A stretch of DNA of 63,067 nucleotides, counting the filler, from Stramenopiles sp. TOSAG23-6 (Eukaryota): NCBI GenBank assembly GCA_900128565.1. It is 11 parts of 11 records of this genome, joined end to end, with 100 filler letters (N's around TTAATTAATTAA, not from the genome) between each part and the next. Parts side by side here need not be neighbours in the genome. Positions count along the whole stretch, not along the records: positions 1 to 5,668 come from LT636857.1; 10 more parts are not named here. One strand, given 5' to 3'. The translations under genes were made by a program, and so were the position numbers. Shown here piece by piece: positions 1 to 44,811 of this stretch (within the stretch, counting starts at the first letter, position 1; each line of letters opens with the position of its first letter). The notes beneath the pieces are model-generated. The model did not search any database. It had not been told where the DNA came from and worked only from the letters and a program-made list of their open reading frames with translations.

Positions 1-86
1 AAAAAAATTAAATTCGAAATTTGTTAGGTACAAAATTTCGTACGAAAAAAAAATTAATTATTTTGAAATTCATAATGAAAACGTAC
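1..86 (-). mobile_element. Introner-family intron (donor GTACGT; acceptor outside window)
   Basis: ATTGGA|GTACGTTTT; TTCGTACGAAATTTTGTACCTAAC core present. Confidence 0.85.
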
Positions 87-3000
87 TCCAATTCTCGTAA
101 ATAATCGATCACAAATCTTTAATTTAGCTTTCTTACAAGGTACGTAACAACCACTTTGTGCCAGTATTTGAATCAAAGCAACTTGTCTGATAAATGTACT
201 TTTTCCAGCGCCATTTGGTCCTGTAACAATTTGTACATTTCCAGTCGCAAGATTTACATACATTGTGAAAAAAAAAAAAAAAGTTTGAAATTTGTTAGGT
301 ACAAAATTTCGTACGAAAAAAAAAATTGAAATTCATAATGGAAAAACGTACATCATTCGAAACGAATGATTCTTCGGAGATACGTTCAATGATAGGATGT
401 CGACATTGACGAATATCTAGAGCATATTTATTATTCGCAATTTCTGGATGGAATTCGGGTCGTACATTTACAATGTAAAATATTTTTTTTTTTTGGTACA
501 ATTGAATAGGTATAAAATTTTCATAGTAAAAAAAATGATGAAAATGATAAAAAAATCCAGAAAACGTACATAATCATTAAATTCAGCCACAAGGCTTGCG
601 AATCCAGTAATCATATCTAATTGAGCAACGGCTTCAGTGACACGAACTAGAACTTCAATATCGCATCGTAGAGAGTCTTTTGCAGTATCAATAGCACGAT
701 GTGTTCGTAGAAATATAAGTTTCAATGATTGTTCAATTTGACTATTTAATGATAATAATTCACGAATCGTCCAATTGATGTATTGTGAAAAAAAAAAATT
801 AAAAAAAATCGTTAGGTACAAAATTTCGTATGAAAAAAAAATTTAAATTAGAAATTCATATAAAAATACATCCACTTCCCTTTCCGTACTGCTTGTAAAA
901 TTTCATCTTGTGGTAATTCATTTTCAAATTCGGCTGGAATTCGTAAGATATATCCTCGTGATACCGTATGATATATATTACATTCTGGTAGATCCCAAAT
1001 ATTTCGTTTTGTTTCTTCGAGTTGTTCAACTTCATTAATAAGACCAGTGAAACATTCTCTTTCTACATCAAGATCATCATCAATATTTTTTTCTACAGCC
1101 CAGACCGCTTGAAATTGCATTCCTAAACTATCTTTTGTAAACATCGTGTCTTCACTAAAAATTGAATTCAAAATATTTTCCATCCGTGGAAGTGCTCTAT
1201 CTGAAAAAGTCTTTTGTATTGCAGACAAAAGTTCAGACTTTGCATCTGAAAGCGAATTGGCCAATCTTGGAAGCAACCCTAAAATATGTTTTAAGGATAT
1301 TAAACTGACTATAGAAGATTTTGCTGTTTGCATGGAAGGTTCTTCAAATTTTGATTTTGAAGCCAATTGATTCAGTAATGTATCAAGATTGACAAACTTT
1401 GATAAAATATCACCAACACCAAAAAACATATATTTTGGAAAAATATTTCAAAAAAAAAAACTAAAATTTGTTAGGTACAAAATTACGTACGAAAAAATAA
1501 ATTCGAAATTAAAAAAAATAAAACATACATCGTTGAAGATGATAAAAGTTCTTCAACAGCATCTAAACGTCCATTAATGGTACCTTCATTTGCTGGTGGA
1601 CAAATTAATGTAGCTCGGAGTTTTTGTGCACCAACGGAGGTTTTCGTGCGATTTACAATGGCTAATAATGTATTCGTCTTCTGTTTCCCAGTTCTAGCAT
1701 TAGTGACAATTTCAAGATGTCGAACACTCACATGTATTGTGAAAAAACACGAAATTGTACGAAAAAAAAGTTAGGTACAAAATTTCGTACGAAAAATAAA
1801 TAAATTTGAAATTGAAAAAAAATAAAAACATACATGATCTACTATCATTTGACCTTCTAAATCAACCCATTTGATTTGCATACTTTTTGGTAAAAACAGA
1901 ATTTTTTGATATTCTTCTGTATGGTGAATTAAACACGCTAAAGAGGCAAGTGGCAAATATTTTGCTTTTATATCAGTTTCAACGGCATTTGCACCAAGCT
2001 TTGTGACTAAAGAAACTCCTGCATCTTCGTTATAAAACTTTCTCTGACAAGGAAGAACATCAATACCAGGAAAAAAACGTTTTACAGATTGTACTAAAAT
2101 ACCTTGAATCAATGTGTCAGGGACAAGTAACACTGATGCATTTTTGACAATATTTCCAAAAAAAAAAATTTTTTTTTTGTTAGGTACAAAATTTCGAAAA
2201 AAAAAAAAAATCATATAAAAACGCACATGGATCGAAAGCTTGTAATAAGGCAAGAGTTTTGCTAAAGTTTCGATTATCATTAATCTGAGATAATTTCAAT
2301 GAAGTTTGATTATTTAAATCCATACATTGTGAACAAATATTTTTTTTTTGATTTTGAGATGTAAAAAAAAATTGTTAGGTACGGAATTTTTGGAGAATGT
2401 TTTTGAAAAAAAATAAATACAATTCAAATTGAAATTCAATTTTGAAAACATACATTGCAGCTAATCCGACTTCAAATGCTCGGGATTGTGAGATTGCAAC
2501 TTTGACTAAATATGACCTATTTGTATTCGGGTTGGAGTTATTTGCACGAGATCCACTTCTATTGCTACTAGTACTTTTACGACTTTTAGATTTTCTAGTC
2601 GAATTTTGTGTTTTTCGTGTATTTCTACAACTTTTGTCTTCTGTTTTTGTTCTCGTAGATTTTGTGACATTTCCATTTAATCTCATCCTTTTACAAGATG
2701 ATGGTCTACAATGACTATCTAATTGGGATGTTTTTCTTCTGATTGATTGTGGCACCAAACGTGGAGTATATGGTGGTGGATTTTGTTGGATTCGACTTTG
2801 TTGGATTCGATTTTGTTGCATTGGTGGTGATGGATTTTGTTGGGTTGGTGGATTTTGTTGCATTGGTGGAGGTGGATTTTGTTGCATTGGTGGTTGTGGA
2901 TTTTGCTGCATTCGACCAAAACTACCTTCAATATAGTGCGATGTATCACTTTGGTAATTGTAACCATTATTGGTGTCTGGTTGGAAAGCTCCGATAGAAG

Positions 3001-3598: not shown

Positions 3599-4995
3599 AT
3601 GACTACAAGCTCTAGTAACATAGAATGGTCAATCCCAGATCAACCTTTTAGAAGCTTAGGACCTTCAAAGAAAGCAATGCCACCTCCCGTTCCAAAAAGA
3701 CAAGACAAATTCTTCAAGAGTGACTGGGGTTGCCAAAACAGTGACGTCAAAAACAACGACGAAGAGTCGGAACAAGTAAACAAAATTCTTGAAGCAGAAG
3801 AGGCTATTCGACAAGCACGTGAACTAACACAAGGCAGTATGCGCTTCAACCATTTTACAAGTGGAGGCACGCGGAGAGATCAAATTAATACTTCAACTCT
3901 TCGGCGTATTTCGGAAGCTATTGCTAATCTTTTTCGTATCAAAAAAAAAGAAACAGTGGGAATTCTCGATTCAGGACATGACTACCATGTAGAAGCAATT
4001 GAATTGATAAAGTTCCAAAATACAGAATTTCTTGGTTATCTACGCCTCAAAATTCGTAAGGCAAGGTCCCGGCTGGAATTACGAAATGTCTTCAAGAGTA
4101 ATCAGCGATGGCTTGCCATGGTTGAACTTGCCCCTCCAGACCACAGCCATACTTTATTACCAGATGAACTATCAAAAATGTTATTTAAAGGTGTTGAAAA
4201 AGATGCTGAAATTGTCATCAATGACTGCGCTATTAAAGCTTGCTATGTAGATGAGCATGTATGTTTTACTTTTTTTCAAATTTTAAGTTGTTTTCGTACG
4301 CAATTTTGTACCTAACGAAAAACCATTTGAAATATTTTTCCAAAATACATATAAGTTTATTGTTTAGTAGAAAATCGAAGACTCGCCGAGCTGCTTTGGT
4401 CCACTCATTGAAGCAAGCAACACTTGTATCGTCAACTTCAGGAGATGCATGTATGTTTTATTTTTTTTTTAACAAAAAACTTTTCGTACGAAATTTTGTA
4501 CCTAACAAATTTTTTAGATTTTTTTTTGAAATATTTTTCCAAAATACATACTTAGTTTTATATACACTACTCGGACCGAAAAATTTATTATTGAAAAAAC
4601 TTCGCCTGAGGTTACGAAATGGTCGAGATAACTGCCGAACTGGAATAGAATATTCGACTGAGATGGACCGTGTTATAGTCGAATCTGTTAATATTTTTGA
4701 TATTTTATTTGTACGCCCTAAAAAGGATGGAACAAGTCAATGTGTACGTCTTTTTTCAGTTAGGGTTTGCATATTACAACAAATTGATATCCCAACTTGG
4801 AGTAATGTTAGAATGGCAAGCGTATTATTGATGGCACCAGAAGTAACAACTCAGTCCACGGAATCTCCTACAAAAAAGACAGAAGAGTCAAATATTCCTA
4901 ACCCTAACCCTATAGATAATATTCAGAGTCCAAAAGACACAAAAACACAAATTATAGAAAGTTCGCCTAGTACTGTTATATCCAAGGATAAATAG
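3599..4995 (+). CDS. Hypothetical protein, 3 exons (3599-4258, 4351-4450, 4550-4995)
   Basis: Two ORFs become one frame after removing two family introns; no motif recognised. Confidence 0.7.
4259..4350 (+). mobile_element. GT-AT introner intron
   Basis: cAT|GTATGT..TACCTAAC..ccaaaatacAT|ata; in frame. Confidence 0.85.
4451..4549 (+). mobile_element. GT-AT introner intron
   Basis: cAT|GTATGT..TACCTAAC..ccaaaatacAT|act; 99 nt. Confidence 0.8.
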
Positions 4996-5768: not shown

Positions 5769-5862
5769 GGAAAAATATTTCAAAAAAAATCTAAAAAAAA
5801 TTGTTAGGTACAAAATTTCCTATAAAAAATAAATTCGAAATTGAAAAAAAAATAAAACATAC

Positions 5863-7014
5863 ATCTTTCCCTTCCTCATTTTCATCAATTGCCCAACGTT
5901 TGACGAGGTCGTGATAGTCTCTGTACGGTGCTCCACCTGTACATTGGAAATATATTTCAAAAAAAATGATTGGTTTTGTTAGGTATGACATTTGATACCA
6001 AAAAAAAAAAATTCGAAATTCGAAAAATGAAATATACCTGTGTAAGGGATGCGTCCAGGATTAGATCGAACCTCAGGCATTGATTTACAACGGAGCACAT
6101 TATCTCTAAGATCTGCGAGAGTTCGACAATCGCGTAATTTTGTAAAAGCCTCGGGAAATAAGTAACCACAAGTAGGAAGAAGCGACTGTCTTTCCGTCCG
6201 ACCCATATAGTATTAAAAAAAATGTAAGAAAAAAAAATTTTAGGTACATAATTTTCTATGAAATAATAATAATAAAATGTAAGAAAAAAAATATTAGGTA
6301 CATAATTTTCTATGAAATAATAATAATAATGATGAAAACGTACATGTGTGTCTTTGAAAGGTTTGAGAAATCAGCAATAAATGAAGCATCAATGATACTA
6401 ATACTTATCTGATCAGCACGAACTTTGAGTAAATGGCCCATTATGAATTATGAAAAAATATTTCAAAAAAAAATTGTTAGGTACAAAATTTCGTATGAAA
6501 AAAAAATTATATAAAAAATTGAAATTGAAATGAAAACGTATATTTCCGCTGTCTCTCCACCTAAATTTTGTGTAAATGTATAAAAATCTTCAAGATACAA
6601 CTTCATAACACCATTTTGAAGCATATAATCACGTTGTTCAGAGAGTAATGAAGTAACTTCATCAGATCCTTGCAGTTTCTGTTTGTCTTTTAGTGACAGT
6701 AAATATTCCTCAAAATATTTTCCAACAGACGTTCCAATCAAAACAGTCCAGACAAGTATTGTGAAAAAAATATTTCGAAAAATCTAAAAAAATTTGTTAG
6801 GTACAAAATTTTCAAAAAAAAAAATCGAAATTGAAATGAAAACATACAAGTTGTTCAGTTCCTTTCTTAGTGGGCTCGAATGAGGCAATCGCCTTCATCG
6901 TAGATTCATCAAACATTCCTAGCGGGTGACAAGACTCCATTATAGCACTTATTTCCACTCCCACATCCGCATTTTTGAAGAGATTGAGAATCTTAAAGAC
7001 ATTGTCTATCATAT
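5863..7014 (-). CDS. ATP6V0D: V-type ATPase V0 subunit d, internal fragment; exons 7014-6848, 6753-6542, 6442-6344, 6204-6038, 5936-5863
   Basis: YMIDNV..CHPLGMFD..VLIGTSVGKYF..KLYLEDFYTFTQNLGGETAEIMGHLLKVRAD..GYLFP matches Vma6/subunit d motifs. Confidence 0.85.
5937..6037 (-). mobile_element. Family intron with GT-AG ends
   Basis: cAG|GTATAT..TACCTAAC..caatgtacAG|gtg. Confidence 0.85.
6205..6343 (-). mobile_element. GT-AT intron with internally duplicated core
   Basis: cAT|GTACGT..2x TACCTAA..actatAT|ggg; restores KTHMGRTER. Confidence 0.75.
6443..6541 (-). mobile_element. Family intron with AT-AT ends
   Basis: aAT|ATACGT..TACCTAAC..aattcAT|aat; restores conserved TAEIM. Confidence 0.7.
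6754..6847 (-). mobile_element. Family intron with GT-TT ends
   Basis: cTT|GTATGT..TACCTAAC..caatacTT|gtc; restores EQLVWTVLIGT. Confidence 0.8.
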
Positions 7015-7109
7015 ATGTATTTTGGAAAAATATTTCAAAAAAAAGTTTGTTAGGTACAAAATTTCGTACGAAAAATAAATTCGAAATTGAAAAAAAAAAT
7101 AGAACATAC
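7015..7109 (-). mobile_element. GT-AT introner intron at the NOL6 / V-ATPase d junction
   Basis: cAT|GTATGT..TACCTAAC..ccaaaatacAT|ata. Confidence 0.8.
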
Positions 7110-8841
7110 ATGCTAGTGCTGGTGCACCAGAATCGGCAGCAGGACCTTTTTCTACCAACCGCCAAGCATCTGGTTCATTTAAACGTAATGCTAAACTCAT
7201 CACAGGTGCATTATCCTTATTTGAATTATATGTAGGTGGAGATTCGAAAACACCCCATTGAGCTTTACAACCAACGCTATCACGTACACGAATCATTTGG
7301 ACTCTGTCCCCTAATGCATACGCCATCGTACGAGCTAACGAATTACGGAAAGCAATTGGCCATGATTGATCACACAATGAATTAAATATTGGAAGATCTC
7401 TTTTCGCTTGAATAAGTTGTTTTTTTGTATCCTGTGAATCACTGTCAATGTTTTGTGGTTCCTTTGGTCCAAATCTTGGCATAAACACAGTGAAAAACTC
7501 ATCAAAATTTACATCAAATCCAGAAGAGATCATAAATATAGAATGAAAGGCATCAACAGGATCTCCAAGAAAAGCAATCGCAGATTGTTTCGCAAGATGA
7601 CGTAATTCGATATAAGCATCTGTCGAGACTCTGCTAAAAATATTCACTGCGGGTATTCCTCTCTTTCCTGGTAAAATAATAGCAATATCGAATACTTTAT
7701 TCCAAGCTGATACATCAATACTTTCAGATATGATTTCATCATCATTTTCATCTGAGTTTTCTTCGGAATCTTCTGCATCATTTGGAGCAGGAATTAAAAT
7801 GCCTGATTCAGCAACATCAGTATTAGCAATAAACTCAATTGTTAATCGAAATATATGATATGGATCCATCTGTGGTGTAACAACGCCAGTACGAAATAAG
7901 TGAAGGAGGAGAATACAAAGCTGAAAACCATTGACGCTATCTGAAGCCTCATGAAGCTGCCGTCTTCTACTCCATATCTTCAAGAGAATACATGCCTGTG
8001 CAAATGAAGGTGACTCCAAAGCTAGTGCATGCAGCTGTTGAAGATGATCACGAAAACACATATCTTCTAAAATAGAGTTATTATAAAGAGGAGTAGCCGG
8101 TTGAGGTTCATCAAGGAAGCATCGGCGGCGGACGTTATTCCTTCGTAGTGCTAATTTCCCATGGCTAAAAGCGTCAGCTGAAACACAAGGCAAAATACGC
8201 AAAACACACTTTGATAGAGATGAATTAGTAGATTTTGATGAAGTTGCAGAAGTTTCTGTAGGTTGAAGGCAAAGTACAATTTTAGACAAATCACCACGAA
8301 ATCCTTCCAGCCAAACTTTTTTGAAGAGTTTCGTCTTTTTTAATTCTTGTGCGACAACACCGAGATAGAGTGCACGCTTGTCAGTGTATCTGTGATTCAA
8401 GTAGTCTTTCGGGGTAATACATGCGTCCGGAATCTCAATGGCTACGTCAATATTCAAGGAAGGCTTCGCCAAAGAGCGTATAAGGAAACTGCCAACAACG
8501 TCAACGCGAGCAGGGCTTTTGAAAGATAACTCAACTGGCTTGGTATGACGGTTCTGACAACAAATACCACTAAGAGAAAGTGTACTCTCTGTGACAGTCT
8601 GATCAGGTATTGTATCGATAGCAGACTTAAGGGCGAACATTACTTCCTGTATGCCAGAAAGTTTTTCGTAGTTTACAGAAAATTCGGACAAAAGTTCTTT
8701 GATTTCGAGTTGCCACAAATTTGACTTGAGTACACTATTCAGATTGCCTTCACGACTTGAAAGTGATCGCAAATGGCGAGATTCTTCCTCTGTTGGGGCA
8801 CTGAAGCGTGAGTCATGCTTCTTCATTGTAATTGGTGCCAT
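7110..8841 (-). CDS. NOL6: Nucleolar protein 6 / Utp22 (Nrap family), 5' part only
   Basis: VVGSFL..IDVAIEIP..KDYLNHRYTDKRALYL, ATPLYNNSILED, LLKIWSRRR, VEKGPAAD. Confidence 0.9.
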
Positions 8842-10201: not shown

Positions 10202-11373
10202 CTAATTTGACTTGGGTTGACCTAATACTTCCAGAATAGTAGCTTGGCAAGCTTCTGCTAACCTAGTTGCTGCTTCCAACGTCGATGCCTCTGCATATAC
10301 TCTCACTACATCCTCAGTTCCACTTGGACGAACAAAAGCTCGACCTTCTTTCCCTTCAGCCGCTACTAATTCGTCAATTTTAGTTTGTAAATTAGGAGGT
10401 TGTATAACTTTGAGACCTTCCGGTGTCAAAGAATTTGAGATCGCATTACGGTCAGGGACCCGAACAGCAATTTGTTTTGAAGGAGTATTAGTGAAGAGGT
10501 CCTTCCATTCTGAAAGACCCCAACCCTCCAATGCTAAAATAGCTTCTACCATCAACATATCAGCAAGCGAATCACCAACACCTTGATTAATGAGCTTATA
10601 CGAAGAAAGTAATCGCTGAAGAGCTAAACGCTTTCTTGGGGACAATGTATTTTGGGAAAATATTTCAAAAAATTTAAAAAAATGTTAGGTACAAAATTCA
10701 CTACAAAATGTTTTTTCAAATTGAAATGATGAAAACGTACATGCATCTGGATCTTTTTCATTATTCTTTGATGACTCGATTGTGGCCTTATCACGTTTTT
10801 CCATATCACGAAGACGTTCAATGAATGTTGATTTAAATACTGCAGTACCATGGCCATTTGCTTCAAAATACACACCAATATCAAATTCTAGGGCTTTATG
10901 ATGTACTGGAAAAAATATTGTAGAAAAAAAAATGTTAGGTACGGAATTTCATACCAAAAAAAAAAACATTTTTGAAATTCATGATCAAAACGTACATGAC
11001 AATGCTTAACACCAGTTCGAGTAGTTGCAACTGTTAAACCTAAATCCTCCTTCATATATTTTGTAGAAGCCCCGTTCGCATAAGGAGTTTGAACACAACC
11101 AAATGTCATGGTGTTGGCTGTGGTATCTCCATCAGTAGATAAAAGACCTAAAACTTGACACTCACGTACGAGAAAACGGGAGAACAAAACTGTCTCTGCA
11201 TCACCATCCAATAAATGCCATTTTGAATCAGCATCGTAATAGTGATATACAATTCTATCAGCATCACCATCGATAGAAGCAATTCGTTTTCCTCGATCGT
11301 TAGAAGAAATCCCTTCTGGCGGAACACCATTTCTGTATACATGATCAGCACCACACTTAAAGTTGAGTACGCC
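10202..11373 (-). CDS. PGM3: Phosphoacetylglucosamine mutase, 3' part; exons 11373-10996, 10900-10741, 10644-10202
   Basis: [59 protein letters not shown]. Confidence 0.95.
10645..10740 (-). mobile_element. GT-AT introner intron (PGM3)
   Basis: cAT|GTACGT..TACCTAAC..caaaatacAT|tgt. Confidence 0.85.
10901..10995 (-). mobile_element. GT-AT introner intron (PGM3)
   Basis: cAT|GTACGT..TACCTAAC..ccagtacAT|cat; restores conserved KHCHHKA, the nearby AG is out of frame. Confidence 0.9.
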
Positions 11374-12512: not shown

Positions 12513-15500
12513 CTAACCTTGTACTTTAGCTGAAAAACTAAACTGAAACAAAGGGTTACCCTTTGACTGAAATACAGGCCACCATTCTTGATACATTGGT
12601 CCATCAGGTTTAAAACGTATTTTATATATTTTTGTATCTAGCATTTGTGAAATCGCGTCATAGACTTCATCATAAGTACTCTTAAACTTATGACCGAAAT
12701 TTTGTACCTCCATATCAAGTGATTGAGCTTTATCGTTGAAATGTACAATAGTTTGATGTCTTTTGTAATTATTAGGATCAGAAACAATTTTACTCATTTC
12801 ATCTTNGAAATCTTTTATTATGATTGCTTGACGAGCACTAAATTCTTCAAGCTCCCAACGAACCCAATGACATATTCGTACTCTTTCAGTATCCGAAATN
12901 CCATCAATGTTCGTATCCAAATTGATGAAATCCGGTAAATCTCTTGGTATGTCTGTACCTGGACTTTCTTGTTTGAATTTTTTCCTGAAATCACGCATTC
13001 CCTTTCGTCTTTTCTTCTTTATTTTTTTAATTCTTTTCTTGATATCCTTGGCGTTTTCTGGTGTTTCAGATATTTCTGTCATCATTTGCTCTTCTTCAAT
13101 GCGTGTCCATCTGATGGTCATTTGTATCTGATAATAATAATGTCTTTGTAGATGTGTTTTTCTCGAGATTGCATCATACATGGCATTACTTAAAAGCATC
13201 GGGGAAATTTTATTATATCTGTCTACTATTGCATTCCATTCATTTTGAAACCTAATCTCTGCCTCATTGCTGATTTCAAATGTTTGGTCACGACTAAAAA
13301 CGTAGTGAAATAAACTTTCCCAAGTTGTCATTGGTACACCAGCCAATCGGCATTTACGAACAGCCAAATCTGATGCTTCAAAGGAATACATATGGATTAA
13401 TCTTTCTTTTCGCTCCTCATCAGTCCAAGTTAAATGTCCAGGATAGTTTTGGGTAAATACTGCATAGTTCTGAAGTATATTCTGCAATAAGTCAACTTTA
13501 CGTGAAAGCAATGGACACAGTTTTGGCTGAATATTACCAATCTCATCCGGAATGTTGCCCATTTCTACATTTACAATTGTGAGTTCCTCTTCCTTACGTC
13601 GAACATCTTCCATGAACTTTTGGAAAATATGTCAATTGTTTTTCTGTAAGGTATAAAATTTCGTACGAAAAAATTATTTAGGTAAAAAATATAAGATGAA
13701 AACTTACATTAGTAAAGCAAATGGTAATTTAAGACGATCTGGTAGTTCTATATCTAAAGTTCTAGAACCAGGAAATATATCATTTTTGATTGTATCACTT
13801 TTCAATACATGTGTATCATCATAAACCTTTTCCCAATCTTGACCAATATTAAATAGATAACCAAAAGAAAGGAGCGGGATAACCAACCCAAGTATACTAT
13901 AATATATAGCAATTGGTTGCAGACTCCATCTAATTTTTGTTTTTTTCTCGGTTGGTTTATTTTTCTTGTTTTTATGATTGGTTTTAGTTTTAGTTTTAGT
14001 TTTAGTTTTGGTTTGATTTGCGGAATGCTCGTTGCCAACGTTTCCGTTTGCTTCCTCGTTTTTTTTCTTCCTTCGTCGGCGACGTCTCTTTTTAGTTTTC
14101 GACTGAGGTTTATGTTGTCCAACAAATAATTTTGTTTCAACAGGAGTTATTTTTTTCTCTTTAGGAGAAACATCAATCTCTTTTTGTTGTAGAAGTTCTT
14201 CAATTCGACTTTTATGTAGAACAGGCAGAATATCTTTAGAAGTATGCGAAATATGCTGAGAAACTTTTAATTTTTTATCATCGTGGGGTTCTTTGTTATC
14301 ATCTTGAGGTTTATTTTTATTCTCTTGAGGTTCATTAGTATGATGATCATTAGGAATAACTGCTGCTGTGCTATTTGCTTCCCCTGGACTCTTTGCTTCA
14401 TTTCTATCACCGAAACAAGGAATTTCAACCAAAGAGATACTAGAATTTTCAAAACATGGGCGAATATCACCACCACTAACAATATGTTTATATAAATCAT
14501 CAAATGACCTTTGAACTCGTAGAATATTCCGTACATTAACACTTGCATTTTTTTTCATTTTTTTCACAAAGTGGATCCTGGATAAACATTTCTCCTTGTT
14601 GATCAAATGGAGTATTTCTTTGTACCCCATCAGGGTAAAAAANACACTCAATGGGTCGCATGTGCATTTCTTTGTTTCGTCCGATATATGGACTATCACG
14701 AGAAAATGTTTTTAAAAACCTAATTAATTTTTCAACTAATGAATATCGATTTAAAATAGCACCTTGCATACTTAAAAAAAAATGTACCATTAAGATGAGA
14801 ACATAACCTGTTAAAGTTCCATCACGAGGATCGTATAATTTCGCTTTAAACAAATATCTCTTCATTAATAATACTATTTCTCTCATACCTTGATAACGCC
14901 CTAAGCTGTCTGTAACAAATTCAAGAGCACGAAGTCCCGAATGATTTGAAGTTTGTATTGAAATGTCGGCTTTTATATTTTGACCTTCCAGAATAATATG
15001 AGGAATCTCAGTACCAATAATTTCGGTTTCGTATCCAGAATCAAAAACAGTATTCAAAGTCTGCAAGTAATCGATGACTTCAGTAGAAGGAACTTCCCAT
15101 GGAAAAGATACAACAATATCAAGATCTGATATCCCATTGACGTAAAGGTTTTGAGCCACAGAGCCATACACAGTAGCCTTGACACCATTCGTGTAATATT
15201 TTACGCCGTGTTGGTCCACCAATGGCCACTGATAAATATTTTCTCCCAATTTTTCAACAAATTGTTCTTGATTCATCCGCTGCTTGTTGTCGTTATCGGC
15301 AAGAAGAATATTTTCAAGGTAGCGATTCGCCCAAACTTTATACTCAGGCTTTAATGTTGAATGGTCGAATGTAGGGGTGCTACAGTGTTTTCGTGTTGGT
15401 TTTGGTATAAATTCCTTCGAACTCTCCTTTAGATCCGATGTGGGTGAAACAGTAAGTGGAGCAAGTCCTCTCAAATGACTAGCGGCATTTACATGATCCA

Positions 15501-23800: not shown

Positions 23801-26800
23801 TCATTTTGTTTGTGTCCATTTTCGAAGACCTGGAGAGTCATGTGAGGCAATCAAAATACGCATGTCATTTGTGAAATCTTTATTACGTAAGATACCCTCT
23901 TCAGCAATATCATTTTTGAACATATCTATACCTGGAATAGTTTCTGTTTGGTCTACATTTTCATGAAGACTTTGATACTGAGCATTAGCTGGGATATTCA
24001 TTGATTTAGTTTCATATATCTCATATAAACTTGTGGAACATTGGTTTAGATCGTCATGATTAAAACTGTTGAGTTTTTCAAGGAAATATGCCGCGCGTGA
24101 TACAGAATCATTATTACACAATATTTCAGACAAGCCTCCTTTGGGACTTGGTAAATCGGAATAAGTAGAAGAAGCAATCAAGGCTTGGATTGATGATTTC
24201 CAGAGTTGGAAGTTCTCCTGAAATGCACTCGCGCAACTTTCCAACTGAGATTGTATTTGCTTGGCCCACAAGTCAAAGTCATTAGCCTTTGTTTGAGCGT
24301 GGTGCATCTGTGCTATATAATTTTCACGATTTATATGTAGCGTTCGAATAACTTTACTTTGTTTTCTTATCGATGCCGAAGCCAACTCTTGTGCCCATAC
24401 AATATTATTTTGATGTAAGGATTCTTTGTCTTTGCATACTTTGTATTGCCAATTACCCCAATGACCACCACAGAATAGATTATTACAGTTTCCTCCAACA
24501 CCAAGGGATGCAGCTAATGCTTGATAGCCAAATGATGCACCAGTACATGCGCCCAATGCACAGTCCACTATTGTACTGTCCTTTATTCTCGAATCCTGAT
24601 ATTTTGTGGTATTACCGTGAACCCGCAATTGGTGTGCAATCTCAGGATGATCAATACTAAATCGAGAATTGTGAGCAGTATTAAGACATTGTGTTGCATA
24701 GACCAAAACTCCCATCCACCATTCGCTATGTCCCGCTAAAGTATGCTGAGCCATCGCATTGAATATAGAAATCCCTTCAGAGGTAGTATTGGCTGAGGAT
24801 GTAGATGCCATAAGCGCAATTATTCGAAACGCGCATTTTTGAAGCAAAGATATTTTGTCAGAAATTTTTGTTGAACTTGTTTTACTCAAAGTTTCCGCGT
24901 TTGTTTCTGTGATATTACTGACTGCATAGTCAAACTTTTCAAGTTCTGTGCTAAGTAAATCAATAATTGTGAAAGTGTTAGAGCGGAACACTTTCCCTGT
25001 CGCAGCGGCTATCAATGCGTCGCTTTCCTTGTTCATGACATTTAGCAAATGCTTGCATGCATTTGCCGACTCAAACTTTGATACCTGAAAAGCTTCCCAT
25101 ACTTTTTGAGTAATGGGTACTTCTTTGGTAGATTGTTTCGAATCGACATTAGTTTTTGAAGGTTTCAAATATTCTATTTTTTTCTTACTCCCTATAAGAA
25201 CTATACCGTGTGAAAAATATCGACGAATATTTGATATAGCTCTTTGTAACAGTTGATGCTCAGAGGAGTGACATGATATAATAGTTAATAATGTTGCTGG
25301 TGCTATTATACCTATACCTGAAAAGTATGATGTCGTGTCTTTGGATAAGTCTGATAGAGTTTCTAATACAGACATTGCAGATTGAGCAATGACAACATTC
25401 CAAGGGAATCTCTCGATATACGTCTTGCATAAAAGTGTAATAACACCATCTCTTATTTGCTGAATGAAAGAACTTGTATTACTCTGCATTAGCTGTTCAA
25501 CTATAGCGCATGCCTCTTGGACCATATGCATACCAACAACAGCATGCCGCATACGTTTCTTGTATTCAAACGACTTTTGATGAGCACTAGGCCAATTATC
25601 AAAACACTCCAAAATACTTGATTCCATCCAAGTTTCTGGACCAGCTTGAAAAATCCACAAAATACACGCATTTAAAATACGTACTGCTGGTATCATGATA
25701 CTACTCTCATTTGTATATTCACGTAGCAATGATGCTAATTGTTGAATGCATCCTTCCTCTACGAGTATTTGTAGTCGATCAAGTCGATGGCTTATACGAG
25801 ATAGTATCTGTATTAAATAAACAATATTTTGTAAGTTTTGCTTTCTCTCGGATTTTACTAATTGTTGCTGTGATTCTTTGATGTATGAATCCAGTTTACG
25901 TGTGATTGTTATGACAAGATTCTTGTATTCTTCCACCGATGTAGGACACTGAAAATTATTTACCTTCATTTCAGCCATAAGTATATTTGCATCTGACGTT
26001 GCTGTTTTGTATACATATTTTCTAGCTTCTGACATATTACTGTTTTCAACACCGACATGAACTTCCGCTTCTTCAAATAAATTGGAAAAGGTTGTCAATT
26101 CTTCAGGTACATTTGAATATGGCAAATTTGATACTTTTGTGTCATTGTCACCTTGCCAAACGCGAGATATTTTTGGTATCTTTATCCTTTGTTGGTCGCC
26201 AATTTCTTGACTGGGTTTGACGGGTATTTTAGAAAGATGTCGAAGTCCTTTGAGTTCCAGAGATTCCTCTGGATTTCCACCAATTGCGTCTCCCCACCGT
26301 TCGTAAAATATCGACGCAGTAGCAATAAGTTTTCGATTATGTCGTAATGTTAACATTTCTTTCATGAAAAATGTGTTTTTCGTGTGTCTTTTCCACTTTC
26401 GTTCTAATTCAATCATACCAAAAGGACCCCGACATACCCAATGAAGGAAAGGGTAAGGAGTATCGGAGTTGTGTTCCGTGTCACTTTCATCTAGAAATGC
26501 CCGTAAAGTACCTTTTGCTAAGACTGACTTGAGTGACATGTCACAAGCAATATTTACTATAGGTCCTGATATAGTTTCTTTTCCAGATAAGGGAATTTCT
26601 CCGTCAAGGAAATCGTTACCATCTGCAAGGAAATGCATTACTTTAATCACCTCTTTGACACCAACGTTATTATCAAGAACAATATTCCTATTTGCTGAGG
26701 TTTGTTTTACTGTATCATCTGTAAAATGTTTACATCGCCGTAACAGTAATCGGTCACAACAATATAATGAGGCTGATATGACGCCATTCGAGTTAACCAC

Positions 26801-28672
26801 ATTATTTAAGGATTTTGGCATATTTTCAATGTTTGAATGTACACAATTATGAAAGCAATTCATGAAATATATCATACCAACAGAACTATTTCGAGTCCAA
26901 ATTCCCTCCCATTCGGCAAGTTGGCTAAATTGATCTATTGGAATATCTTCATCAATATTTGTTGCAAGTCTTGCATTTTGACGTAGCTGTGCTGCAACTT
27001 CAGGTTGCATAATTCTCAATATCTGGACCCAGTTGCGACCACGACCGTCTTTCAAAGTATGGTTAGCACCCGCATTATCAAGTGTGCGAAGAATTGATCT
27101 AGAACCTTTCATTGCTGCCATATGAATAGGAAACATGCTATTTATAAAGATAGGACCATTGCTAGTATTTGCTGACGCGCCTCCTTCATCAATTAAGTGC
27201 TGTACTAATTTACAATGTCCTGTAGTAGATGCGCTCAATAAGGCAGGAAGAACACGTAGACTATTTACAATGTCTACATTGAATTCCCCAGTGTTTATTA
27301 AAGCTTTAGTGAGGTAACTGTGACCAGCACCAATAGATGCACTTAAACGCCCAGAATGTGCAGCCGCAAGAGCAACGGGTTGATCACTTCCAATAACCAT
27401 GCATGAATTCCGGGTAACCTCTTGGACAGTACTTACAATCTCATCAAAAGATAGCTTTGATATATCACTGTTCTTACTGCTAAAGACTTTTGAGCAATGC
27501 TCAATCATTAGACGCACTTGTGCTATTGATTCATCAACCCCGTATTTTTGAACCTTACAGGCTTTACGAAATTGTATTTTAGATGAATCATCATCTACCT
27601 GCTTCTGAAAAGACAATGCTAATTGTCTTTGTAATTTAAGCTTCTTTTGGTACGATTTTGCTGTTAGTATCAAATAATTCAGTTTAGTAACATCTGAAAC
27701 ATCACCACATAGAACAAGTTTCATTTCTCTTTCTAATTCTCGACGAGAATTTTCAAAATTCATTTTGAGAGCATTAAAAGTAGATAAATGATGTAGGCGT
27801 TTTGCACACAGCGTCCGTGTACTTTCATTTTCAACATCACCCAAATTATCTGAATTCCAAGCCCATTTTGTGTGGAGACCAGGGCTAATATTATTATACA
27901 ACATCCCAGTATTTCTGTGTCCAAATTGAATGAGACTTGCCTGAAATACTTCTTCACTGGTAATATATTGGGTATTCATCCCCTCATTAAGTTTATGAAA
28001 GCCTGTAACTTTACGCTCAGATATATTTTCCTCCTTTTGACGCCGAAGTTTTGCATCTGCTAATGCCGTTTTTGTGTTTTCTATCATTATTTCTACTTCA
28101 CTTTGAACGCTTCTTTTCTTTGATTTCGGGTTCGAAGATATTTTGTCTATTGCTGAAGACCCGAGTGTCAAAGGTAGTAAATGCGTTTCATCAAGATCAT
28201 TATTAGGCCAACTCTTGGGAGTTGCAATCAAGCTATACAAATCATCTGGATAAGCAGATATTAAACCACGAACTCTTTCATCTATTTCATTGGCATCAAA
28301 GGCAGTATCATTGATTTCTGTTTGTAATACAAAAATACCATGTCCATTTATTCCGGTTACAACATTACCAGGATAACGTGTATCAACCTTCTTGAGATCT
28401 TCATCGGCGACATTCAACCTCAACTGATATATTGTTCGCTGTAGCTGTAAACGCCACAATTGTCGTTGTTTACTAATATCATCATATACATTTTTGCCAT
28501 ATAGTTGATGACAACGAGTTGTCAGAATATCATCAGATGTATTCGGGAGAGATTTCAACTCTTCTAATGCTATTTTCAATTTCATACAACAATCAATATT
28601 AGGATCAAGATCAATTAAGACGCTTGCATAGGTATCTCTATTGTCAATTGTTGGTATTACTGTGTCATAGTC
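23801..28672 (-). CDS. Large ankyrin-repeat / helical-repeat protein, 5'-truncated
   Basis: 1594+ aa intronless ORF; ankyrin-like FPIHMAAMKG..GANHTLKDGRGR. Confidence 0.75.
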   Translation of the reverse strand, partial: DYDTVIPTIDNRDTYASVLIDLDPNIDCCMKLKIALEELKSLPNTSDDILTTRCHQLYGKNVYDDISKQRQLWRLQLQRTIYQLRLNVADEDLKKVDTRYPGNVVTGINGHGIFVLQTEINDTAFDANEIDERVRGLISAYPDDLYSLIATPKSWPNNDLDETHLLPLTLGSSAIDKISSNPKSKKRSVQSEVEIMIENTKTALADAKLRRQKEENISERKVTGFHKLNEGMNTQYITSEEVFQASLIQFGHRNTGMLYNNISPGLHTKWAWNSDNLGDVENESTRTLCAKRLHHLSTFNALKMNFENSRRELEREMKLVLCGDVSDVTKLNYLILTAKSYQKKLKLQRQLALSFQKQVDDDSSKIQFRKACKVQKYGVDESIAQVRLMIEHCSKVFSSKNSDISKLSFDEIVSTVQEVTRNSCMVIGSDQPVALAAAHSGRLSASIGAGHSYLTKALINTGEFNVDIVNSLRVLPALLSASTTGHCKLVQHLIDEGGASANTSNGPIFINSMFPIHMAAMKGSRSILRTLDNAGANHTLKDGRGRNWVQILRIMQPEVAAQLRQNARLATNIDEDIPIDQFSQLAEWEGIWTRNSSVGMIYFMNCFHNCVHSNIENMPKSLNNVVNSNGVISASLYCCDRLLLRRCKHFTDDTVKQTSANRNIVLDNNVGVKEVIKVMHFLADGNDFLDGEIPLSGKETISGPIVNIACDMSLKSVLAKGTLRAFLDESDTEHNSDTPYPFLHWVCRGPFGMIELERKWKRHTKNTFFMKEMLTLRHNRKLIATASIFYERWGDAIGGNPEESLELKGLRHLSKIPVKPSQEIGDQQRIKIPKISRVWQGDNDTKVSNLPYSNVPEELTTFSNLFEEAEVHVGVENSNMSEARKYVYKTATSDANILMAEMKVNNFQCPTSVEEYKNLVITITRKLDSYIKESQQQLVKSERKQNLQNIVYLIQILSRISHRLDRLQILVEEGCIQQLASLLREYTNESSIMIPAVRILNACILWIFQAGPETWMESSILECFDNWPSAHQKSFEYKKRMRHAVVGMHMVQEACAIVEQLMQSNTSSFIQQIRDGVITLLCKTYIERFPWNVVIAQSAMSVLETLSDLSKDTTSYFSGIGIIAPATLLTIISCHSSEHQLLQRAISNIRRYFSHGIVLIGSKKKIEYLKPSKTNVDSKQSTKEVPITQKVWEAFQVSKFESANACKHLLNVMNKESDALIAAATGKVFRSNTFTIIDLLSTELEKFDYAVSNITETNAETLSKTSSTKISDKISLLQKCAFRIIALMASTSSANTTSEGISIFNAMAQHTLAGHSEWWMGVLVYATQCLNTAHNSRFSIDHPEIAHQLRVHGNTTKYQDSRIKDSTIVDCALGACTGASFGYQALAASLGVGGNCNNLFCGGHWGNWQYKVCKDKESLHQNNIVWAQELASASIRKQSKVIRTLHINRENYIAQMHHAQTKANDFDLWAKQIQSQLESCASAFQENFQLWKSSIQALIASSTYSDLPSPKGGLSEILCNNDSVSRAAYFLEKLNSFNHDDLNQCSTSLYEIYETKSMNIPANAQYQSLHENVDQTETIPGIDMFKNDIAEEGILRNKDFTNDMRILIASHDSPGLRKWTQTK

Positions 28673-30047: not shown

Positions 30048-33000
30048 TCACTGCCGTCCAATAAAATGTTGATCTAAAAAGTGAATAAATCTTGATTTGT
30101 ATGCAGGTGCCGGATTTGAACTAATATCTTCTCCTTTTGCTCCCATTAACGCAATCTTACTTGTCATTTCAAGTCTTTTTTTCCAATCATAAGGTTGTAA
30201 GATATCAATTATACCTAAATAGTATACAGTATTGTTCATCACAATTCCACTGGAAATATTAGAGATGTTTGTACTTTCCGTCGTAATGATACCAAGCAGT
30301 AAAGAATAATCAATAATATTAAGCCTAGCAAGGAAATCTGTATCTATTTGCAACTGTTTCATCAGATTTATCTTTGCTTTGATTGGTATATCAATTTCAT
30401 GTAAATCTTCAATAAAGTTCACATCTTTACCGACTGCATATGGAAATGGTTTATTTAAAACTTTATCTGAAACTCTTCGATTTCGTTTAGATCCTTTCAA
30501 GTCATATATATCTATAGTTTTCACTCTATTATTTTGTTTGTTTTGCAAATTTCCCGATTTTACCAATTCAAAAATTGGTTCTAATAAGTTTTTCATTACT
30601 AGGACAATACGGTGTGATTTCTGAGGTAAACTTTTCATTTCAATAAGAGCACAAAGTTGGACGATACGCGTCTGGCAACCATACGATAGCATATGACAAT
30701 AATATTTTTCAATCATTTCAAGAAATTGTGAAATTTCAAATGGTTTTACGGTCTTCACAATAAATTTTCGGTCACTTGTATAATAAAAAGCTGCGCCACT
30801 TTTTCCAGCTTCACTTTCGCCGCCCACCAAAGGATTTGAGAAAGATTCAATAAATTGTGCATTCGAGATACCATAGTTGCTTCGAAGATGTGAAAAAACA
30901 GTAGGTGTATAATCAATTATTTCAGAATGAAAAGGACCAGTAAATCTTCGGTTTTGTTGAAATTCACCAAGGAAAATATTTTCACGAAATTCAGTTGCAG
31001 ATTTACACTGTTCAATGTACCCTTTAAATTGTTGGGTTGTTGTACAGTCTTGATTTGAATCTTTCTCCAAAGTATTTTCTACTATTTCCTCTTTTGCAAT
31101 AATTTCAAAATTCTTCTGCAACTGTGCTGCTCTAAATATTGCATCCCCTATTCTTTTTTCTGTTTCACTAAATAAATGCTGCTTTTGTTTTGGTATATTT
31201 GGTCTTTTTTCTGTTTCACTCAATAAATGCTGCTTTTGTTTTGGTATATTTGGTATTTCAAAAGCTTTATCATTATCAACTTCATTCAGCTTTTGTTTCA
31301 CATTTGATATCTTTATTGGTGATGCTTCAATAGAAATTGGTGTAGGATCATTAATTACTGAATTTGAACTAAATTCTTTTTCGTTATCTTGTTGTACCAA
31401 TTTAGATGTTTTTGCACGAAATATCTCTCTATTATCAAAATCATTCCGTCGATTATATGCACACTGTTGCTTCTCCGCCTCTTGTTGAATGATACATTCA
31501 ATAGAATTTGATGGTTCAAGTATGATATTTGGAGCAGGTCGTGTAGAACAAATCTTCATAATCCACATAGATAGTTCGCTTTTATTTGAGAACCCTAGAT
31601 ATAAAGTGTATTTGGAATTCTTTTCATTTAACTTTTGAAATTTTTGTGGTTTCTCATAAATATCTCTCGCTTGACATATATCAATTTCGTATGAATTTGG
31701 ACGAAGAAAAATATCACAAATTCGTAAATCATACTTTTTAGTGTACAAATCCGGCGTAGTATCACTAACCAACGGTCCATTTCCATCTGCGGCAAGTCTT
31801 TGTACTGTTATTCTTGTCCCATCAAAAGTAACCCACGAAAGTTGTGCTGTTGAAAAGGCTGTATAACGTTTTATATGACGCACTGGTCCCGAAATTGACA
31901 CTTCTTTCGAAGATGATTTCATTGAGTGATTTATACATTGATTTTTTCTTTGAAGTGTAGTAGTCTTATTATGAAGTTTTCGCTGCGAACTATTTACATT
32001 ATTTGTTTCTGCTTCTATTACTCGAAAAGTTCGTTTCACTGTATCAACGATAACATCTCTATTTGTCTGAAATATCTCCTTACCATATAGTAATACTAAA
32101 TCACTATAGGGAAAAGATGCATTCATACTAACGGACAAGTCTATTTCATTTGTTCTACCAGGATTACCACAATGTATACCTTTTTGTTTTCGAAAAGATT
32201 TGCGAGCAAGAATCTCAGTTCGATTAAGAATTGGTGGTGCACCAGTCAATGATTGTAATGATGCATTTCGTATTATAATTCTCGGCTGCAAAGTTTTGGG
32301 CTTTATATTTCTAAAAGAACGAATCCATTTGTCTAGTTCTGCTGCAGTCGCAAAACGTAATGTCCAATAAGTATATCCTAATGCTGCTGAAGTACTTTTT
32401 GATTGACTACACGTATTATTTTTTTCTTCTTTTATTTCATTGATTGTTGCTTGATTACTATCCCTTTTGGGTTCTGGATTTTCTGATTGATGTGAATATC
32501 TTATTTTGTTTGAACATGTACTGCCCATAGTATTGATGTATTGTAGGAAAATATTGCAAAAAGTTTGAGGTTTTTGTTAGGTACAACATTATCTAGGAAA
32601 AAAATGAATTAAACATTGTAAACATACAGGGTTCTATTAGATCCCCAATGACGCATCACTCGGATCTCCTTCTTCTCTTTATCACATACTATTGAACCAC
32701 ACGATAAATCAATCATATCAAAATGTTCCAGCAATATCTCTACGTTGTCTGTTATTTCATTGCTTTTAGCAAGTGGTAAACGCCAACTTTTAGATTTCCT
32801 TTCTTTTTCATTTTCTTGTGCACACCACAGTTTTGTTCCATACAATAAAAGACGACTATATTGCCATTTATCACTTCCCCAAGTGGATGACACACGGCGT
32901 GTTGTGTATCCAAACATTTGAGCTGGCGTCTGCAAAAATAGCTCGTGTGCGTATTCAATGGCAGAAATCCATAAACAAGAACTTTCATAATCTTGGGTGT

Positions 33001-33780: not shown

Positions 33781-34529
33781 TTATTAANNNNNNNNNNNNN
33801 NNNNNNNNNNNNNNNNNNNNNNNNNNNNNNNNNNNNNNNNNNNNNNNNNNNNNNNNNNNNNNNNNNNNNNNNNNNNNNNNNNNNNNNNNNNNNNNNNNNN
33901 NNNNNNNNNNNTTGACGTCTTTATTACAATGTCATTTTTTTGTTTCTCCATTTTCAACGAACTTTCGGCTTTTTTTATCCCAAATCTATTTGTATTTTCC
34001 GTACTATAATATTTCTTCATAGGTAATGTAACTGATGTAGTTTCAGTTTTATTTGTTGTTCTTGTCGAAATAGTTTTGTTGGATCTAGATTTATCTATAT
34101 TATGTGGGGTAAATGGTGGCATCGATTGAGAACTCGATAGGCTATTCATGATCATATGTTCCGATGATTTCAACATATTTGGAGCAGTAGACGTTTTTTT
34201 TAAAGAACGAGATTCGAGCCATTTTTGTTCATTTTGTAATGATTTTGGGTTCGTTGAAAATGGAGAAACAAAAAAATGACATTGTAATAAAGACGTCAAC
34301 AATGTGGGAAATGACTCAACGCGCAATAGAATTATTATTTCATCGCTGGTACGCAAGTGTTCAACTCGATGATGAAAATATGAAAGAAATACCAGGCTTG
34401 TGCCAAACACAAATTCANNNNNNNNNNNNNNNNNNNNNNNNNNNNNNNNNNNNNNNNNNNNTTAATTAATTAANNNNNNNNNNNNNNNNNNNNNNNNNNN
34501 NNNNNNNNNNNNNNNNNTCAGAGATTAAT

Positions 34530-34690
34530 GTATGTTTTCATCATTCATTTTCATCGTTCATTTTTTTTATTAGAAATATTTGTATCACTATTTTCATGTC
34601 AATTTATTTATGTAGTTGTAACATCAAAGCCTATATTTTTTTGTTTCTAACAAAACAATTAAATTTTTAAAATATTTCCCCAAAATACAT
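34530..34690 (+). mobile_element. GT-AT intron (SWR1), diverged interior
   Basis: aAT|GTATGT..TTCTAAC..ccaaaatacAT|gga; restores QRLMDRFN. Confidence 0.85.
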
Positions 34691-37225: not shown

Positions 37226-37478
37226 AACCCTAATGTGTACATCAAAGCAAACATAGACGAGAGAGTAAACCTGTAAGTTGTAATAATAACCCTAACCCTA
37301 ATGTGTACATCGAAGCAAACATAAACGAGAGAGTAAACCTGTAAGTTGTAATAATAACCCTGACCTAATGTGTACATCGAAGCAAACATAAACGAGAGAG
37401 TAAGTTGTAATAATAACCCTAACCCTAATGTGTACATCGAAGCAAACATAAACGAGAGAGTAAACCTGTAAGTTGTAA
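37226..37478. repeat. About 4 tandem copies (~60-70 bp) of the RFC2 3' end
   Basis: Unit cctaatgtgtacatcgaagcaaacataaacgagagagtaaacctgtaagttgtaa. Confidence 0.9.
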
Positions 37479-37787
37479 AACTGTTGTCAATCCTTCTGCG
37501 ATACGTAAATGAGTTTTTCCAATTTCACGGATGAAATTCAACTTTACGTCCTCAGGAATATCAAGCAGTTTTGTGACACGAAATATCGTGCCTATAATAT
37601 CGGACGCAGCGTATCCCTTCTGCCAAAGTAATTGAAGATTAGCATTTGCCTTTTTTAAATTTGCTTCATAACAAGATTTCATCATTTCTTGGACTACTTT
37701 TGGATGAGGTTGATCACAAACTTTGAAAACATTTTTGCTGTTGACAAAGTCAAAACCAGCTTTTGTAGCTTGAAGATTATTGAGAGC
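37425..37787 (-). CDS. RFC2: Replication factor C small subunit (human RFC2 / yeast Rfc4), last exon
   Basis: ALNNLQAT..VFKVCDQPHP..GYAASDIIGTIFRV..IREIGKTHLRIAEG. Confidence 0.9.
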   Translation of the reverse strand, partial: ALNNLQATKAGFDFVNSKNVFKVCDQPHPKVVQEMMKSCYEANLKKANANLQLLWQKGYAASDIIGTIFRVTKLLDIPEDVKLNFIREIGKTHLRIAEGLTTVLQLTGLLSRLCLLRCTH

Positions 37788-44747: not shown

Positions 44748-44770
44748 GTATGTTGTTCATCAAAAATATC

Positions 44771-44811
<41 letters not shown>

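Follow-up and report, generated by a model that had tools for sequence, protein, structure and literature searches.

The DNA analysed here (the window) is a stretch of 63,067 nucleotides from Stramenopiles sp. TOSAG23-6 (assembly GCA_900128565.1), which consists of 11 contigs of approximately 5.6 kb each joined by spacers of N and contains 61,872 non-N bases. The eukaryotic genes identified in it were a MutS homologue, Nrap, BMT5, a phosphoacetylglucosamine mutase, a WD40 protein, PIP5K, an SNF2-type helicase, MOB1, UTP25 and RPT5. An initial annotation had assigned the introns of the window to a single dispersed repeat family (introners, intron-generating transposable elements), and it is this family and its splice borders that are described below. 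The GC content was approximately 24-41% over the window; a value of 33.9% is given for one uncultured stramenopile group in the available part of PMC5269757, a resemblance that is compositional only and is no evidence of host identity. Near-identical DNA was present in small sequencing runs of 2015 and in seawater metagenomes of 2024, at 0.43-0.75 of sampled words. Contigs from read runs were placed on contig 2 only, with 4 of the 19 listed runs used, and the two runs cited below are X9, a polyA metatranscriptome, and X3, a seawater DNA metagenome.

The family comprised 47 members, of which 38 were full-length and 9 were cut by contig ends, and every one of the 11 contigs carried a member, as had been proposed. 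The region 1428-1833 named in the initial annotation contained two copies, both on the minus strand (1428-1528 and 1732-1833). With up to 3 mismatches allowed, a 25-nt core had 25 matches in the window and none in any of 100 shuffles; the motif TACCTAAC was present 39 times, where 20 shuffles gave an expectation of 2.55. With a profile made from 28 full copies, 42 matches at E<1e-3 were obtained, the best down to E 6e-16, and the final tally was set after inspection of weaker profile matches and a scan for GTA[TCA]GT. Four TACCTAAC sites (45025, 45508 and 52410 on the plus strand and 57757 on the minus strand) were excluded from the seed as unclear; two of these were later recognised as one fragment and as part of a duplicated member. 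When the flanks of all 39 sites were aligned, both ends of the element fell in register, and the borders were read from alignment columns and coordinates. This alignment and the profile confirmed the internal architecture first described, namely GTAYGTTTT, a T-rich part with CAATTTCGAATTT, then TTTCGTACGAAATTTTGTACCTAAC, a second T-rich part, GAAATATTTTT, (CCAA/CAC)AATAC and AT. Full-length members measured 91-334 nt (median 99), with 35 of the 38 at 91-139 nt, in agreement with the 91-140 nt initially given, and the others at 161, 205 and 334 nt.

Identity among the 378 pairs of the 28 seed copies was 54-95% (median 73%), and identity to the family consensus was 56-85%. The closest pair, 7015-7109 and 49461-49553, agreed at 88 of 93 aligned bases (94.6%), and no two copies were identical. 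The description of some copies as near-identical was appropriate for this pair only; 1732-1833 was 86.7% identical to 49461-49553. A T-run followed by AACAAAAAA was common to 4451-4549, 40261-40345 and 51726-51810, in unrelated genes, with a near variant (a T-run followed by ACAAAAAAA) in 45996-46061; this subtype block and a second one, CAATTTCGAATTTATTT, were each present in 3-7 copies across unrelated genes. The similarity reached far past the splice signals, contrary to the convergence of splice signals that the initial annotation had named as the alternative.

Outside the members already known, the GTA[TCA]GT scan returned 55 sites, from which 34530-34690, 54311-54644 and two copies cut by contig ends were added, all of them family-like. 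No intron of another kind was found among these 55 sites, introns with a different 5' signal not having been searched for, and within that limit the statement that no confident intron lies outside the family was borne out. RPT5, BMT5, the WD40 gene and the long open reading frame (ORF) at 23801-28672 had no family match, in keeping with the intronless state claimed for these three genes and a 1594-aa ORF. Members were unevenly distributed (over-dispersion index 1.55, p=0.006): the 3.3-kb MutS gene contained nine, and one ORF of 4.9 kb lacked any. All but one of the 47 were genic and sense-oriented, the exception being a fragment. The repeat had no match among viral contigs or prokaryote genome contigs; in metagenome contigs from JGI a 25-mer gave no match and a 19-mer gave three unrelated chance matches.

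The family members are introns. One X9 contig of 224 nt covered 5874-5934 and 6036-6198, with member 5937-6037 removed, and another of 248 nt covered 6618-6751 and 6846-6959, with member 6754-6847 removed; neither had a mismatch, and both junctions were exact within a 2-nt ambiguity that arises from a repeated GT. The X3 DNA contigs retained the sequence at both members. Removal of the member brought the longest flanking open frames into phase in 33 of the 38 full-length cases, where one third would be expected by chance. Five members were exceptions. Of these, 5937-6037 is confirmed by RNA and was open in phase 0, and 6205-6343 was open in phase 2; the contig start truncates the exon upstream of 34530-34690, 37788-37885 is probably a chimeric join, and the borders of 44748-44864 are uncertain.

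Exon translations were also matched individually against solved structures. On 5b6b_A, the MOB1 exons matched 47-75, then 77-178 from residue 2, then 182-212 from residue 2, which places the junctions at 75/76 and 180/181 with no residue gained or lost. The mutase exons abutted at 374/375 of 2dka and 367/368 of 4bju, again with no residue gained or lost. Across 1428-1528, the MutS_III profile was matched at 2-63 in exon 1531-1731 and resumed from 75 at residue 8 of exon 872-1426. Exact removal or an exact junction was thus supported for two members by RNA and for three by residue-exact agreement with solved homologues. No match among solved structures was obtained for the short MutS exon 352-465 or the MOB1 N-terminal exon. 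For the Nrap exons below 7110, tblastn with 85 Nrap homologues of 1,000-1,350 aa (from 150) gave no significant match, and this gene could therefore not be used to test junctions.

The first two bases of the 38 full-length members were GT in 36 cases (AT and GC in one each), and the last two were AT in 35, AG in two and TT in one. The initial annotation had written the 3' end as AATAC followed by AT; those borders were upheld, and the absence of an AG 3' splice site that follows from them had not been drawn out. With its non-AG 3' ends, the family is more unusual than was stated at that time. In 16 of 34 tested members, which included both MOB1 introns (54735-54857 and 55203-55341) and 6754-6847, a search up to 20 nt from each border gave no GY-AG pair in frame, and for 6754-6847 all six equivalent registers were non-AG. 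The distance from the branch motif TACCTAAC to the 3' end was 33-66 nt, and an unused AG lay within this interval in 12 of 32 members. An introner-type family supplies essentially all introns seen here, and its members are removed at a non-AG 3' site. Neither a GT-AT intron class nor this motif was described in the literature that the searches returned.

As AT usually also precedes the intron, 31 members can formally be read as AT...AC. Introns of the U12 AT-AC type have a ATATCCTT-like 5' site, a branch motif TCCTTAAC near the 3' end and an AC terminus. This assignment was rejected for the family, which starts with GTAYGT and carries its branch motif 33-66 nt from the 3' end. The bases before the final AT were variable (AC, AT, GT, GC, TC, AA) with a nearly constant 5' GT, and 54735-54857, with GT before it, has no AT-AC register.

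The two bases upstream of the member were identical to the last two of the intron in 32 of 38 cases, against a permutation mean of 28.6, and 296 of 100,000 permutations reached 32. The informative cases of this apparent duplication were tt/GT...TT (6754-6847) and ag/GT...AG (5937-6037). C was found at -3 in 17 of 34 members (background 16%) and G at +1 in 17 of 34 (background 20%), and the reconstructed empty site, C-AT-G, is palindromic. Ten of the 22 contig ends lay inside members, which account for 6-8% of bases. On a 5.7-kb stretch, 8,340 contig pieces of run X3 were placed, nearly all of them on members, with a summed depth of 3,788-41,164 in six member-dominated bins and of approximately 6-13 in member-free bins; this summed depth is not a copy number and shows thousands of distinct pieces. 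The dispersed similarity, the subfamily blocks, the contig breaks in members and the statistical signal of a 2-bp duplication support the use of the term introner.

These repeats are probably an introner family, spliceosomal introns that a short non-coding mobile element has generated. Every copy would bring its own splice signals, a strong 5' site (GTAYGTTTT), the branch-like TACCTAAC and a conserved 3' block (ATATTTTT-C-A-AATAC). The RNA would lose the element (GTAY...RTAC) together with the two following bases, copies of the two bases before the element and usually AT. Because the removed end dinucleotide repeats the upstream one, the exon sequence would be restored exactly and the intron would read GT...AT. 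The yeast-like 5' and branch motifs suggest removal by the major spliceosome, and the element may have spread by transposing as DNA into a C/AT/G-like target, of which 2 bp are duplicated. The 3' cut would be placed by the conserved 3' block or its position and not by AG, since TT and AG ends are also used and AGs after the branch motif are skipped. What we infer in this scheme is how the family spreads (as DNA with a 2-bp duplication, or as RNA) and how the 3' site is recognised. With regard to the criteria for miniature inverted-repeat transposable elements, the small size and high copy number fit, the inverted repeat is short, the duplication is statistical and no superfamily can be assigned. 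A broader proposal, to which we would give slightly less than an even chance, is that the 3' splice-site rule itself has changed: GT...AT would be dominant genome-wide, with a conserved block of the element setting the cut two bases past ...AATAC, whatever these bases are, and with no regard to AG. In that case a change of the splicing code would have accompanied the spread of an AT-duplicating (2-bp) mobile element, and host spliceosome and transposon would have co-evolved.

Several observations weigh against these interpretations. No AT-ended member was seen in spliced RNA among the matches listed, and the support for these members comes from reading frames and protein alignment. Member 10901-10995 has a GT..AG pair 5 nt upstream with equal removed length, and the shifted pair encodes Leu, the amino acid of both solved homologues, in place of the Cys of the family register; on these grounds this intron may be canonical. 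The duplication signal rests mainly on the two informative cases, 45346-45550 (AG end) is preceded by a non-matching AT, and five AT-ended members are preceded by AC, CT or GT. The target motif cannot separate transposition from splicing constraint, as the exon consensus normally found around splice sites likewise resembles C-AT/G. The element ends form only short inverted repeats (GTAT/ATAC, with 7 of 8 bases in the CCAAAATAC variant), and no copy pair exceeded the identity of the closest one given above. Within the window, to which the following results apply, there was no transposase domain and no longer element, no clear intergenic or full antisense copy (only 5-10% of bases lie outside long ORFs and members), and no small nuclear RNA gene.

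The same family and the same splicing could also result from spread through RNA, with reverse splicing at ...AT/G..., reverse transcription and recombination, the flanking AT being a site preference; such a route has been put forward for fungal introner-like elements. The sense orientation and genic position of 46 of the 47 members, the lack of a clear intergenic copy, the coincidence of element borders with intron borders, the very short inverted ends and the missing transposase all agree with such a route, and ascomycete introners are described as lacking duplications and inverted ends in the available text of PMC9860276. We nevertheless consider it unlikely. The TT-ended member and one AG-ended member repeat their own upstream dinucleotide, which reverse splicing does not predict, and an antisense fragment is present at 57721-57777. 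Genic enrichment is moreover usual for DNA-type introners too, with 161 of 175 genomes given in the accessible part of PMC9860276.

The preferred reading, that of a mobile DNA element, was also compared with one in which the introns are old and immobile and are alike only through unusually long splice-signal demands of the host. In the more diverged half of the copies, identity was 71% at the 5' end, 96% at the branch motif TACCTAAC and 76% in the 3' block, the value for TACCTAAC being inflated because 28 of the 34 copies in the test were chosen by that motif. That these signals are the best kept parts in diverged copies is what old introns would show, and it is compatible with them that all introns found were family-like and that the median identity was only 73% in T-rich sequence. 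Against this, the palindromic TTTCGTACGAAA part, the half of the core upstream of the branch motif, and the subtype blocks AACAAAAAA and CAATTTCGAATTTATTT are common to copies in unrelated genes, and these shared parts would not be needed for splicing, because they decay in older copies. The TTTCGTACGAAA part fell from 93% to 72% in the more diverged half and would therefore be inherited sequence and not a splice signal. Long-standing immobility is also hard to reconcile with the closest pair, alike over 93 nt, the contig breaks in the repeat, the dinucleotide match within loci, the tandem and nested rearranged copies and the exonised fragment, and it is accordingly given a very low probability.

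The initial annotation had further suggested that the core is under selection and that the genome underwent a recent mass invasion. Conservation in diverged copies agreed with the first suggestion at the 5' end, at TACCTAAC (with the inflation just mentioned) and in the 3' block, and not in the palindromic TTTCGTACGAAA part. The second was not supported, as identical copies were absent, the best pair and the median being those given above, and identity to the consensus did not exceed 85%. From sequence comparison, activity looks long or old, with some younger copies, the splice signals being retained while the rest decays; a single recent burst does not fit. No intron-less DNA allele was seen among the matches listed for the placed runs, 450 joints lying outside that list.

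Removal without a spliceosome, either by DNA excision as in ciliates or by another RNA pathway with paired ends as in euglenid nonconventional introns, might be suspected from the non-canonical borders and from a 4-bp end helix that leaves a 2-nt tail, which was found in the lowest-energy fold of five of the eight members folded. This helix showed no covariation (110 of 136 pairs formed against 111.3 in shuffles), and the eight folds had z-scores of +0.29 to -2.28 with no common structure. DNA contigs of an independent metagenome keep the elements at flank depth (3-6), long ORFs are open in the standard code, and GTAYGT and TACCTAAC are of the spliceosomal kind; removal outside the spliceosome was thus regarded as extremely improbable. 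On the same evidence, three specific candidates were rejected: germline-limited eliminated sequences (ciliate IES), paired-end nonconventional introns of the euglenid or Amoebophrya type, for which only a 4-bp helix is possible, and a role of the terminal helix in measuring out the 3' cut. Conserved RNA hairpins formed by the palindromes TTTCGTACGAAA and GAAATATTTC were also rejected, as variants such as TTTCATACGAAA are uncompensated. An Rfam search of the window found nothing.

Yeast-type introns have GTATGT and TACTAAC as long, near-invariant 5' and branch sites. The signals of the present family are likewise long and near-invariant; the differences are an extra C in the branch motif (TACCTAAC), the lack of a 3' AG and kinship by descent. 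According to the available portions of PMC9860276 and PMC12130899, the introners of marine algae and other organisms (Micromonas, Aureococcus, Symbiodinium, Chrysochromulina) are also short, non-coding, repeated introns of unrelated genes, gene-enriched, common in marine protists and mostly non-autonomous. One of their splice sites can derive from the target duplication, which restores the mRNA exactly, as would be the case here. In contrast to these introners, the 3' border described here is AT and not AG, the apparent duplication is 2 bp as against 3-9 bp (PMC9860276), and all introns found in the window belong to one family. Fungal introner-like elements resemble the family in being confined to genes without an evident autonomous partner, and differ, as described in the same partial text, in their canonical borders and in lacking duplications and inverted ends.

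The introner elements of Amoebophrya (PMC7789003, in part) are also repeated non-canonical introns of a marine protist, with short direct repeats over the exon/intron boundary and inverted ends. They are described there as having no dominant dinucleotide, inverted repeats of 8-20 nt and direct repeats of 3-5 nt, whereas the present family has uniform borders (GT in 36 of 38, AT in 35 of 38), inverted ends of 4-8 nt and strong yeast-like 5' and branch motifs. In tunicate genomes (Fritillaria and relatives), 95% of introns are reported to be non-GT/AG in the accessible text of PMC13326754; these are animal genomes with several intron classes, whereas the present family retains the 5' GT with an extended 5' consensus and departs from the usual borders in the 3' dinucleotide alone. 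The available parts of PMC5269757 and of a 2026 bioRxiv preprint on marine single-cell genomes contained nothing on splice sites.

The AG 3' end is among the most constant signals of eukaryotic genes. A free-living marine protist whose introns are nearly all copies of one element with an AT end would offer a natural experiment on 3' splice-site choice, on transposon-made introns at the scale of a genome and on how far a spliceosome can follow. A U2 able to pair with UACCUAAC would fit the GT...AT reading if that reading is true, as would loss or alteration of the U2AF small subunit. Standard gene finders miss GT...AT introns, and gene catalogues, intron statistics and annotation-based introner surveys are therefore likely to be wrong for this lineage. 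According to the part of PMC12130899 available, introner surveys began from annotated introns and kept families with unfamiliar splice sites only with transcript support, so that a GT-AT family would be missed. The public predicted protein P0001 (580 aa; 7012-8841, minus strand) follows the Nrap frame and reads through intron 7015-7109 to the next stop, which indicates that existing annotation missed these introns. In addition, 30 residues of the window frame are missing from P0001, and its residues 552-576 match the translation of another family copy, at 5769-5852.

Table 1. Family members and related fragments in the window. Lower-case letters before the slash are the two bases preceding the intron.
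Feature	Position	Strand	Supporting observation
Member cut by window start, 5' part GTACGTTTTC...core	1-86	-	Profile positions 1-69
Intron 94 nt, at/GT..AT, MutS-homologue gene	258-351	-	Phase 0 both sides
Diverged member 104 nt, GT..AT, branch motif TACCTATTC	466-569	-	
Intron 92 nt, GT..AT	778-869	-	
Intron 101 nt, GT..AT	1428-1528	-	MutS_III profile continuity
Intron 102 nt, GT..AT, no in-frame GY-AG alternative	1732-1833	-	
Intron 91 nt, GTGCGT..GCAT	2136-2226	-	
Intron 132 nt, GT..AT, 3' AATGTAT variant	2322-2453	-	
Intron 92 nt, GT..AT	4259-4350	+	
Intron 99 nt, GT..AT, T-run/AACAAAAAA subtype	4451-4549	+	
Member cut at contig start	5769-5862	-	
Intron 101 nt, ag/GT..AG	5937-6037	-	RNA contig X9 record 26 joins 5934 to 6036
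Diverged member 139 nt, internal tandem duplication (branch-motif half), GT..AT	6205-6343	-	
Intron 99 nt, ATACGT..TCAT, 5' A for G	6443-6541	-	
Intron 94 nt, tt/GT..TT, AG 13 nt after branch motif skipped	6754-6847	-	RNA contig X9 record 27 joins 6751 to 6846
Intron 95 nt, GT..AT, Nrap gene	7015-7109	-	94.6% to 49461-49553
Intron 96 nt, GT..AT, phosphoacetylglucosamine mutase gene	10645-10740	-	
Intron 95 nt, GT..AT (family register)	10901-10995	-	Removed length residue-exact, 2dka 374/375, 4bju 367/368
3' part of member cut at contig end	11374-11425	-	
3' part of member cut at contig start	11526-11577	+	
Diverged member 96 nt, GTAAGT..TCAT	13612-13707	-	
Intron 95 nt, GC..AT, flanked by ORFs with 474 and 952 open codons	20688-20782	-	
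3' end of member cut at contig start	23027-23064	+	
Intron 92 nt, ct/GT..AT	32536-32627	-	
Diverged member 161 nt, GT..AT, upstream exon cut at contig start	34530-34690	+	
Member 98 nt, frame unrestored, probably chimeric join within repeat	37788-37885	-	
Diverged intron 118 nt, GT..AT	39001-39118	-	
Diverged intron 121 nt, gt/GT..AT	39600-39720	-	
Member cut at contig start	40261-40345	-	
Intron 99 nt, GT..AT	44247-44345	+	
Diverged intron 120 nt, GTAGGT..AT	44447-44566	+	
Diverged member 117 nt, borders uncertain, frames out of phase	44748-44864	+	
Core fragment and downstream bases inside exon, read as protein (exonised), just upstream of 45079-45180	45012-45045	+	
Intron 102 nt, GT..AT	45079-45180	+	
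Intron 205 nt, tandemly duplicated member (branch-motif half), at/GT..AG	45346-45550	+	Phase 1 both sides
Member cut at contig start	45996-46061	-	
Diverged intron 98 nt, GTAGGT..AT	46183-46280	-	
Intron 121 nt, gt/GT..AT	49197-49317	-	
Intron 93 nt, GT..AT	49461-49553	-	
Intron 96 nt, GT..AT	51427-51522	-	
Member cut at contig start	51726-51810	-	
Intron 334 nt, family 5' and 3' ends, foreign and minisatellite interior, GT..AT, MOB1	54311-54644	+	
Intron 123 nt, gt/GTGCGT..AT, MOB1, no in-frame GY-AG alternative	54735-54857	+	5b6b_A 47-75, then 77-178 from residue 2
Intron 139 nt, GT..AT (AAAT), MOB1, no in-frame GY-AG alternative	55203-55341	+	5b6b_A up to 178 at residue 113 of 115, then 182 from residue 2
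Member cut at contig start	57455-57536	+	
Antisense family fragment in open plus-strand frame	57721-57777	-	16-mer common to 10901-10995 and 2322-2453
Intron 93 nt, GT..AT	57911-58003	+	
Intron 98 nt, GTAGGT..AT	60419-60516	+	
Intron 99 nt, GT..AT	60663-60761	+	

Some further features of individual members were recorded. An A-to-G change that creates an AG 5 nt before the 3' end (e.g. CAGTACAT) was present in 10901-10995, 13612-13707, 37788-37885, 39001-39118 and 46183-46280, and 10901-10995 was the only one of these five with a matching upstream GT, that is, with a canonical alternative of the same length. The antisense fragment 57721-57777 sits in a membrane-protein gene on the plus strand, where the surrounding 57669-57783 is open, lysine-rich and 39 codons long; 57667-57783 could alternatively be a 117-nt GT..AT intron.

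At the start of contig 7 (34518-34530), an exon end and intron start, TCAGAGATTAAT/GTATGTTTTCATCATTCATTT, recurs inverted at 37885 (37886-37897). The C-terminal domain of the helicase resumes after 34690 on the plus strand, and the frame is unrestored at 37788-37885. This arrangement of 34518-34530 and 37886-37897 suggests a chimeric join in inverted orientation, or else a misassembly, within the repeat. At 37226-37478, a 68-nt unit is repeated in tandem (3.9 copies, 88% matches); the array contains telomere-like AACCCTAACCCTAA and adjoins the 3' end of a minus-strand ORF at 37425-37886. A minisatellite at 54460-54620, with TTTTTGATAA or TTTTAATAA-like units, lies inside the MOB1 intron 54311-54644, which has no TACCTAAC. 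The N-terminal part of the MutS-homologue gene (2715-2936, minus strand) encodes a proline/glutamine-rich repeat of MQQNPPPP-like units.

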